DNA from: Escherichia coli
GTDB taxonomy: Bacteria > Pseudomonadota > Gammaproteobacteria > Enterobacterales > Enterobacteriaceae
Direction: 5' to 3' (one strand)
DNA length: 64,000 nt
Assembly: GCF_003790525.1 (NCBI RefSeq)
Contig: NZ_CP033635.1
Part shown: piece after piece, positions 8,165-9,447 of the stretch
Layout: the number at the start of each line of letters is the position of its first letter
Numbering within the stretch: the stretch's first letter is position 1
Notes under the pieces: generated by a model
Told to the model about the DNA's origin: nothing
Database searches by the model: none
The model's input: the letters and a program-made list of their open reading frames with translations, nothing else
Program-made: the position numbers and the translations under genes

Positions 8165-9076
8165 GTGAGTACATTAGAACAAACAATTGGCAATACGCCT
8201 CTGGTGAAGTTGCAGCGAATGGGGCCGAATAACGGCAGTGAAGTCTGGTTGAAACTGGAAGGCAATAACCCGGCAGGTTCGGTAAAAGATCGTGCGGCAC
8301 TTTCGATGATCGTCGAGGCGGAAAAGCGCGGCGAGATTAAACCGGGTGATGTGTTGATCGAAGCCACCAGTGGTAACACCGGCATTGCGCTGGCAATGAT
8401 TGCCGCGCTTAAAGGCTATCGCATGAAATTGCTGATGCCCGACAACATGAGCCAGGAACGCCGTGCGGCAATGCGTGCCTACGGTGCGGAACTGATTCTG
8501 GTCACCAAAGAGCAGGGCATGGAAGGTGCGCGCGATCTGGCGCTGGAGATGGCCAATCGTGGTGAAGGAAAGCTGCTCGATCAGTTCAATAATCCTGATA
8601 ATCCCTTCGCCCATTACACCACCACCGGGCCGGAAATCTGGCAGCAGACTGGCGGGCGCATTACCCATTTTGTCTCCAGCATGGGAACAACCGGCACTAT
8701 CACCGGCGTTTCACGCTTTATGCGCGAACAATCCAAACCGGTGACCATTGTTGGCCTGCAGCCGGAAGAAGGCAGCAGTATTCCGGGCATTCGCCGCTGG
8801 CCTGCGGAATATCTGCCGGGGATTTTCAACGCTTCGCTGGTGGATGAGGTGCTGGATATTCATCAGCGCGATGCGGAAAACACCATGCGCGAACTGGCAG
8901 TGCGGGAAGGAATATTCTGTGGCGTCAGCTCCGGCGGCGCGGTTGCCGGAGCACTGCGGGTGGCAAAAGCTAACCCCGGCGCGGTGGTTGTGGCGATCAT
9001 CTGCGATCGCGGCGATCGTTACCTTTCTACCGGGGTGTTTGGGGAAGAGCATTTTAGCCAGGGGGCGGGGATTTAA
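8165..9076 (+). CDS. cysM: Cysteine synthase B (O-acetylserine sulfhydrylase B)
   Basis: GTG start at 8165 gives 303 aa (VSTLEQTIGNTPLVKLQRMGP...), PLP-enzyme fold; the track ORF from 8087 is a 5' extension through the REP. Confidence 0.9.
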   Translation: MSTLEQTIGNTPLVKLQRMGPNNGSEVWLKLEGNNPAGSVKDRAALSMIVEAEKRGEIKPGDVLIEATSGNTGIALAMIAALKGYRMKLLMPDNMSQERRAAMRAYGAELILVTKEQGMEGARDLALEMANRGEGKLLDQFNNPDNPFAHYTTTGPEIWQQTGGRITHFVSSMGTTGTITGVSRFMREQSKPVTIVGLQPEEGSSIPGIRRWPAEYLPGIFNASLVDEVLDIHQRDAENTMRELAVREGIFCGVSSGGAVAGALRVAKANPGAVVVAIICDRGDRYLSTGVFGEEHFSQGAGI

Positions 9077-9078
9077 GA

Positions 9079-9447
9079 TTATTGCGCAGGCACCGTTTTA
9101 TCCGTCTGCGCAATTAACGCATGTAAAAAAGGCTGTGCGTTCTCATCGCTCTTACCGGGCATCTTCACGATATACGGCTTCCCGGTAATCGATGACGACG
9201 AGGCCACCTTGTCAATAAACTGCTCGGCTGTATCAATGCGATTACGGGTATTGCCCAGCTTCAGTCGCAGATGAGAAACCGCTTCATCGCAGGTATGTTC
9301 ATCACCGTTACGCACAAATATTAAATCCTTTTTCTGTGCTAATCCCTCCAGCATAGCGTTGATACGGGCTTCTTCATGGGCCGTTAACTTCGCATAAGCG
9401 GGGAGTGTCATTAGCAGCGTAACGACCAGACAAATGATTTTCTTCAC
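9079..9447 (-). CDS. yfeK: Secreted small protein of unknown function, YfeK-like
   Basis: 122-aa ORF with N-terminal signal peptide ([19 protein letters not shown]); position between cysM and pdxK. Confidence 0.75.

Follow-up and report, generated by a model that had tools for sequence, protein, structure and literature searches.

The region analysed lies within a 64-kb stretch of Escherichia coli DNA (64,000 nucleotides, hereafter the window), in which the gene order is cysW, cysA, cysM, yfeK, pdxK, an IS4 element, crr, and ptsI. By megablast, positions 8500-9700 of the window match the E. coli SMS-3-5 chromosome (NC_010498.1) at 100% identity. The gene for cysteine synthase B, cysM, occupies 8165-9076 on the plus strand. 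It is intact and has 303 codons, on which the RefSeq annotation, the list of open reading frames, and the translation agree, and its product is 98.7% identical to K-12 CysM. Facing it on the minus strand is yfeK (9079-9447), whose 122 codons end in ...TDKTVPAQ*. The protein belongs to the DUF5329/YfeK family (Pfam PF17263, E = 1.8e-31) and has a signal-peptide-like N-terminus. The divergent intergenic region between yfeK and pdxK covers 9448-9551 and is 98.1% identical to that of K-12; pdxK itself follows on the plus strand at 9552-10403.

The two convergent genes cysM and yfeK are both full length and intact in SMS-3-5. The stop codon of cysM (TAA) lies at 9074-9076 and that of yfeK at 9079-9081, read as TTA on the plus strand, leaving a gap of 2 bp, and the junction reads GGGATT-TAA-GA-TTA-TTGCGCAGG. 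The first-pass annotation had given exactly these positions and this spacing, and in RefSeq both genes are placed likewise on NC_010498.1, 2 bp apart. The nucleotides at 9077-9083, GATTATT, constitute an empty site: by blastn, the K-12 sequence, and alignments of the junctions, they correspond to a single copy of what flanks the yfeS cassette twice, as GGATTAAT, in alleles of the K-12 type. That the adjacency of cysM and yfeK is an assembly or sequencing artefact of the record has practically no probability. About 4000 independent complete genomes have the same contiguous layout, about 26 of them being 100% identical across the 1201-bp query used for the flanks, and the artefact reading is already refuted by these genome-wide matches.

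In K-12 (L001) the order is cysM, yfeS, yfeK, pdxK, which corresponds to the b2419-b2421 locus yfeK-yfeS-cysM plus pdxK. This order had been given correctly in the first-pass annotation as pdxK, yfeK, yfeS, cysM, as the K-12 locus annotation confirms, and the intervening gene had been described as a WGR-domain gene of about 240 codons. YfeS of K-12 comprises 244 aa and carries an N-terminal WGR domain (PF05406, E = 6.1e-18, residues 9-71); the structure PDB 2ra8 matches residues 1-68 only. An NCBIfam name for YfeS was rejected, the WGR domain alone matching a Leptospira fibronectin-binding family far below the cutoff. Neither YfeS nor YfeK has a PADLOC match, and membership in a known anti-phage system was rejected for both.

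The K-12 locus and the window agree in their flanking genes, in gene orientation, and in the region between yfeK and pdxK. Identity between SMS-3-5 and K-12 amounts to 95% in cysM, 93% in yfeK, and 98% in the yfeK-pdxK intergenic region. In contrast, SMS-3-5 is without a 958-bp segment containing REP sequences and yfeS, and its yfeK is two codons shorter and has another C-terminus. In addition, yfeK is monocistronic in SMS-3-5, whereas in K-12 it is the first gene of a yfeK-yfeS unit. The K-12 genes yfeK and yfeS have been described, citing database annotation, as one operon under a sigma-E promoter (PMC11502571), which is said to lie in the K-12 counterpart of the yfeK-pdxK intergenic region at 9448-9551.

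When the window and K-12 are aligned pairwise by blastn, two collinear blocks result; they adjoin at window positions 9081|9082, and the extra K-12 stretch between them covers 2083-3040 of L001 (958 bp). Genome-wide matches yield a length difference of 959 bp (2159 versus 1200 bp). The size of roughly 0.7 kb first proposed for the polymorphism is wrong: the K-12-specific segment measures 958-959 bp by blastn and genome matches, that is 0.96 kb, because besides yfeS it includes two spacers, one of 188 bp with REP sequences and the one between yfeS and yfeK. Four parts make up the segment. The first is the cysM-yfeS spacer of 188 bp with two palindromic units, followed by yfeS (735 bp, 39% G+C), the 32-bp yfeS-yfeK spacer, and the last two codons plus the stop of a longer yfeK. 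Since these final codons belong to the segment, YfeK ends in ...TVPAQ* here and in ...TVPAEGN* in K-12, where yfeK has 124 codons and the protein ends in ...TDKTVPAEGN*. The two palindromic units, which we take to be REP elements forming a BIME, have at least 40 matching places in virtually every E. coli genome. The G+C content of 39% in yfeS compares with 50% in the window and 56% in cysM. The cassette is flanked in K-12 by the 8-bp direct repeat GGATTAAT (L001 2078-2085 and 3029-3036), and a repeat of 8 bp at both junctions was reached in 7 of 2000 shuffles. Empty and filled alleles also differ at the junction by a 6-7-nt indel (TTTCCT) and two 1-nt indels.

The cassette was considered as a transposon or MITE. 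Flanking direct repeats of the kind left by a target-site duplication were indeed found, GGATTAAT being kept in four alleles, but terminal inverted repeats and a transposase are lacking, and the candidate was rejected. Local alignment of one end of the K-12 cassette with the other scored 7, against 6.0 +/- 1.2 in shuffled sequences, with 148 of 500 shuffles at least as good. The sole gene of the cassette is yfeS with its WGR domain, and no transposase or mobility gene was found within it.

The window contains no YfeS-like coding sequence detectable by tblastn with K-12 YfeS. The SMS-3-5 chromosome was searched by blastn in distant mode with a chimeric query, composed of the 1201-bp flank and the yfeS coding sequence in opposite-to-native orientation. 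Since the yfeS part is reversed, flank and yfeS cannot merge into one place. The record NC_010498.1 was matched via the flank only (places_in_record = 1), so yfeS was not found on the SMS-3-5 chromosome, in a search at the DNA level that reaches to about 65-70% identity and covers the chromosome. The absence of yfeS, suspected at the outset, is thus borne out for the window by tblastn and for the chromosome at the DNA level by blastn. A presence/absence polymorphism at the cysM-yfeK junction, which had been proposed as well, agrees with the K-12 alignment breakpoint at 9081|9082 and with the lack of yfeS in both window and chromosome. Such a difference in the presence of an accessory gene is ordinary, and public annotation already implies it.

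Among the complete E. coli genomes, 5426 in number, 1387 have the coding sequence of yfeS (25.6%, a share inflated by the many yfeS-carrying records that are laboratory derivatives of K-12 or B). It is nearly always a single copy, with a median of one place per genome. There are 1400 such places in total, and all but one are chromosomal, the exception being the single plasmid place in the whole collection. Genomes without yfeS match just the REP part of the K-12 segment. The flank query of 1201 bp is covered in one place by 5372 genomes, 1383 of them with yfeS, and therefore about 4000 (about 74%) have the contiguous empty arrangement. The empty junction is the majority state among complete E. 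coli genomes, and K-12 represents the minority state. In a ranked sample, carriers of yfeS gather at the low-identity end (K-12, C600, and others), where the flanks are about 95% identical to those of SMS-3-5; a few carriers have flanks closer to SMS-3-5, e.g., CH4796 at 96.3%.

Several individual records deserve mention. A tblastn match of 70% identity on pZ0117EC0005-3 was considered as a plasmid-borne YfeS paralogue and rejected as a copy of the chromosomal region. Positions 1-8067 of this 50-kb record, labelled a plasmid (NZ_CP098226.1, L029), are a frameshift-ridden copy of chromosomal ptsI-crr-pdxK-yfeK-yfeS-cysM-cysA. Because the first 8 kb have this character, the yfeS copy is most likely a product of misassembly in the public record and no vehicle of yfeS. 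Strain LR-03 has an IS1A inside yfeS. E. coli SC516 (NZ_CP025048.1; L028 1132-2200) is 100% identical to the 1201-bp query save for an ISApl1 copy that interrupts yfeK; an ISApl1 insertion at the junction was rejected for this strain, the element sitting within yfeK.

The other feature pointed out at the 3' end of yfeK was an inverted repeat of 8 bp. It exists, although the repeat search gives a length of 9 bp: perfect arms ATTGCGCAG (9081-9089) and CTGCGCAAT (9106-9114) are separated by a 16-nt spacer and lie within the last yfeK codons. This repeat might be functional, either as a shared terminator or RNA-stabilising hairpin for cysM and yfeK, or as the recombination site behind the polymorphism, and three observations point in this direction. 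The 9-bp arms are perfect, and the RNA hairpin has up to 11 pairs and -18.7 kcal/mol on the plus strand, with a loop of 12-16 nt. The repeat begins exactly at the breakpoint 9081. It is also perfect in the empty alleles of strain O111 and Pseudocitrobacter faecalis and mismatched in all yfeS-carrying alleles, the left arm reading TTCCGCAG in K-12. However, the empty allele of a cryptic Escherichia lineage (L004) is mismatched too, and since the repeat is part of the yfeK coding sequence, the encoded protein accounts for its conservation. In folding, it reaches a z-score of only -1.74 on the plus strand and -0.71 on the minus strand. The surrounding 2.5 kb contain 11 inverted repeats of 8 nt or more within 40 nt, so that ten others accompany the one at 9081-9114. 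The terminator scan did not report the repeat, and no T run follows the hairpin on either strand.

The hairpin resembles intrinsic bidirectional terminators between convergent genes in its location where cysM and yfeK meet. It differs from them in its long loop, in a stability that is not significant, and in having no U/T tract in the right orientation. A true bidirectional terminator is exemplified nearby by the K-12 pdxK/crr hairpin AAAAAATGGCGCC...GGCGCCATTTTT, which is split by IS4 in the window. A functional repeat is accordingly quite improbable; as a terminator or recombination signal it was rejected, being at chance level. The inverted repeat at 9081-9114 is incidental, no better than chance, and the first-pass annotation misread it as a sign of the polymorphism event. 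The junction feature relevant to that event is the direct repeat GGATTAAT.

Empty and filled junctions were compared across other genomes. The outgroup sample was small; it comprised one genome per species scanned for YfeK relatives (22 loci) and included no E. fergusonii or Salmonella. The junction of O111 (phylogroup B1), TAAGATTATTGCGCAGG, is identical to that of SMS-3-5. The lineage L004, labelled E. coli and about 90% identical in DNA to both SMS-3-5 and K-12, and P. faecalis (L005) each differ by 1 nt from TAAGATTATTGCGCAGG. In both, cysM abuts yfeK without yfeS, and the junction reads TAAG(A/T)TTATTGCGC(A/G)GG, as in the window. The same arrangement without yfeS is found in Escherichia sp. 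E1V33, where the two genes overlap by 11 nt, and, with different short spacers, in four other enterobacterial genera, represented by UBA5654, Superficieibacter sp., Citrobacter amalonaticus, and Entomohabitans.

Filled alleles of the K-12 type agree at their junctions. Four yfeS-carrying alleles were examined, those of K-12, CH4796, TUM17668, and an uncultured Pseudocitrobacter MAG (L006), and in all of them yfeS is bounded by one shared pair of junctions and by the direct repeat GGATTAAT. In the MAG, yfeS lies at 4408-5139, at the same site and with the same junctions as in E. coli. Compared with the E. coli alleles, its yfeS shows 94% protein and 95-96% DNA identity; the corresponding values in the flanks are 88-91% for cysM and about 70% for the 5' half of yfeK.

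Cargo of other, unrelated kinds occupies this junction in three further species. In E. albertii (L010, 4331-6149) it consists of 1.8 kb with ORFs of 280 and 175 aa, for which no confident Pfam match was obtained, the 175-aa ORF having just a sub-threshold DKNYY match. In C. sedlakii (L011, 4364-8185) it amounts to 3.8 kb with ORFs of 628 and 654 aa, the latter with tetratricopeptide (TPR) repeats. In S. electus (L013, 4376-4891) it is limited to 0.5 kb and one ORF of 140 aa. The last yfeK codons and hence the C-terminus vary with each cargo in these three species.

The empty site is probably ancestral, and K-12 probably carries a horizontally acquired cassette. An empty ancestor and a single acquisition are favoured by the outgroup pattern, by the low G+C content of yfeS, by the outcome of the homologue search, and by the pattern of identity between genera. 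The empty junctions are of one kind, and so are the filled ones, which also speaks for one event and not many. In the homologue search, the E. coli-type cluster is delimited by at least 89% identity over the full length, and beyond it the best match, at 65%, is to a metagenome protein without a name. Among named proteins outside the cluster, those of Paenibacillus, Dysgonomonas, Lysinibacillus, and Clostridium come closest, with 45-58% identity.

Alternatively, yfeS could have been present in the common ancestor and deleted on the way to SMS-3-5, or once and long ago, through the GGATTAAT repeats, with the empty allele spreading afterwards. Such a deletion would be consistent with the 8-bp direct repeats that flank the cassette in all yfeS-carrying alleles examined, and with the presence of yfeS at the same site in a second genus. 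The yfeS alleles are, moreover, 95-98% identical and thus as diverged as core genes. Within E. coli they differ by 2-5%, as much as core genes do between phylogroups, so that the cassette and the polymorphism must be old in the species, which counts against a recent gain. The direct repeats could serve deletion as well as insertion, and neither direction yields the other allele cleanly. However, a repeat-mediated deletion would leave TTTAAGGATTAATTTCCTTCCGCAGG, whereas all empty alleles examined read TTTAAGATTATTGCGC(A/G)GG, a sequence shorter by 7 nt. Phylogroups F and B1, the Escherichia lineage of about 90% identity, and P. faecalis share one empty junction, and more distant genera are also without yfeS. 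The G+C content of yfeS is foreign, the named proteins closest to it beyond the E. coli-type cluster come from Firmicutes and Bacteroidota, and between genera yfeS is more alike than its flanks. Loss from a yfeS-carrying ancestor is for these reasons unlikely. The reading we consider likely is that the window holds the empty allele of an accessory-gene site, that the empty state is ancestral, and that the cassette was captured once and spread by recombination.

Since the cassette has no mobility gene and no terminal inverted repeats, the mechanism of its capture can only be inferred. Under a single acquisition, capture of the cassette may have taken place through illegitimate recombination, with GATTA(T)T as the short sequence involved. 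This capture would have swapped the last codon and stop of yfeK (Q* to EGN*) and would have put yfeS downstream of yfeK, within its sigma-E-driven transcription unit. Homologous recombination within the conserved flanks may later have carried the cassette from lineage to lineage and even to Pseudocitrobacter.

The cysM/yfeK site behaves as a small insertion hotspot. It shares several traits with the single-gene accessory "islets" at convergent gene ends of Enterobacteriaceae, namely variable content between conserved core genes, different cargo per species, low G+C content of the cargo, and no tRNA gene or integrase seen. It differs from them in that the yfeS cassette is very small and has an 8-bp direct repeat with no terminal inverted repeats or mobility genes, and in that one yfeS cassette is common to two genera. 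A wider proposal, which we put forward tentatively and hold to be somewhat short of an even chance, is that the junction is a cross-genus capture hotspot, where a WGR-domain gene was captured once together with the REP pair and is now exchanged between Escherichia and Pseudocitrobacter via the conserved flanks. If this is true, both alleles represent a long-lived cross-species polymorphism, which might be kept by selection on the sigma-E-controlled yfeK-yfeS unit.

YfeS is listed among the K-12 proteins still without function (PMC12356324). A yfeS deletion mutant is reported to be sensitive to boric acid (PMC11502571). At cysM/yfeK, K-12 is not a typical E. coli, and yfeS, probably acquired by horizontal transfer, belongs to the accessory genes. 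Phenotypes attributed to it in K-12, this sensitivity among them, do not describe a function of every strain. The missing yfeS should not be read as a deletion in SMS-3-5. For annotation, the polymorphism explains the two C-termini of YfeK, PAQ* and PAEGN*. Because the yfeK-pdxK intergenic region is 98% identical to that of K-12, yfeK is presumably still expressed in SMS-3-5, as a single gene. To judge from the gene layout, yfeK would then converge directly on the 3' end of the cysPUWAM operon, and the gap would be too short to accommodate a terminator. The functional effects predicted for SMS-3-5 are limited to yfeK being monocistronic and YfeS being absent.

Some further features were observed in the vicinity. 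The gap between cysA and cysM (window 8049-8145) contains a G+C-rich hairpin followed by a T run, GCCCGGAGG...ATCCGGGCTTTTT, at about 8052-8086; it was read by eye and is unlisted by the terminator scan. Behind this hairpin, at about 8107-8143, the letters alone suggest a REP-like palindrome. Between pdxK and crr, an IS4 insertion that is missing from K-12 and O111 divides the hairpin which in K-12 forms a shared pdxK/crr terminator-like structure, AAAAAATGGCGCCGATGGGCGCCATTTTT. The element is complete (10424-11849, 1426 bp), with its transposase ORF at 10437-11783 on the minus strand, and is flanked by a 12-bp target duplication, CGCCGATGGGCG, at 10412-10423 and 11850-11861.
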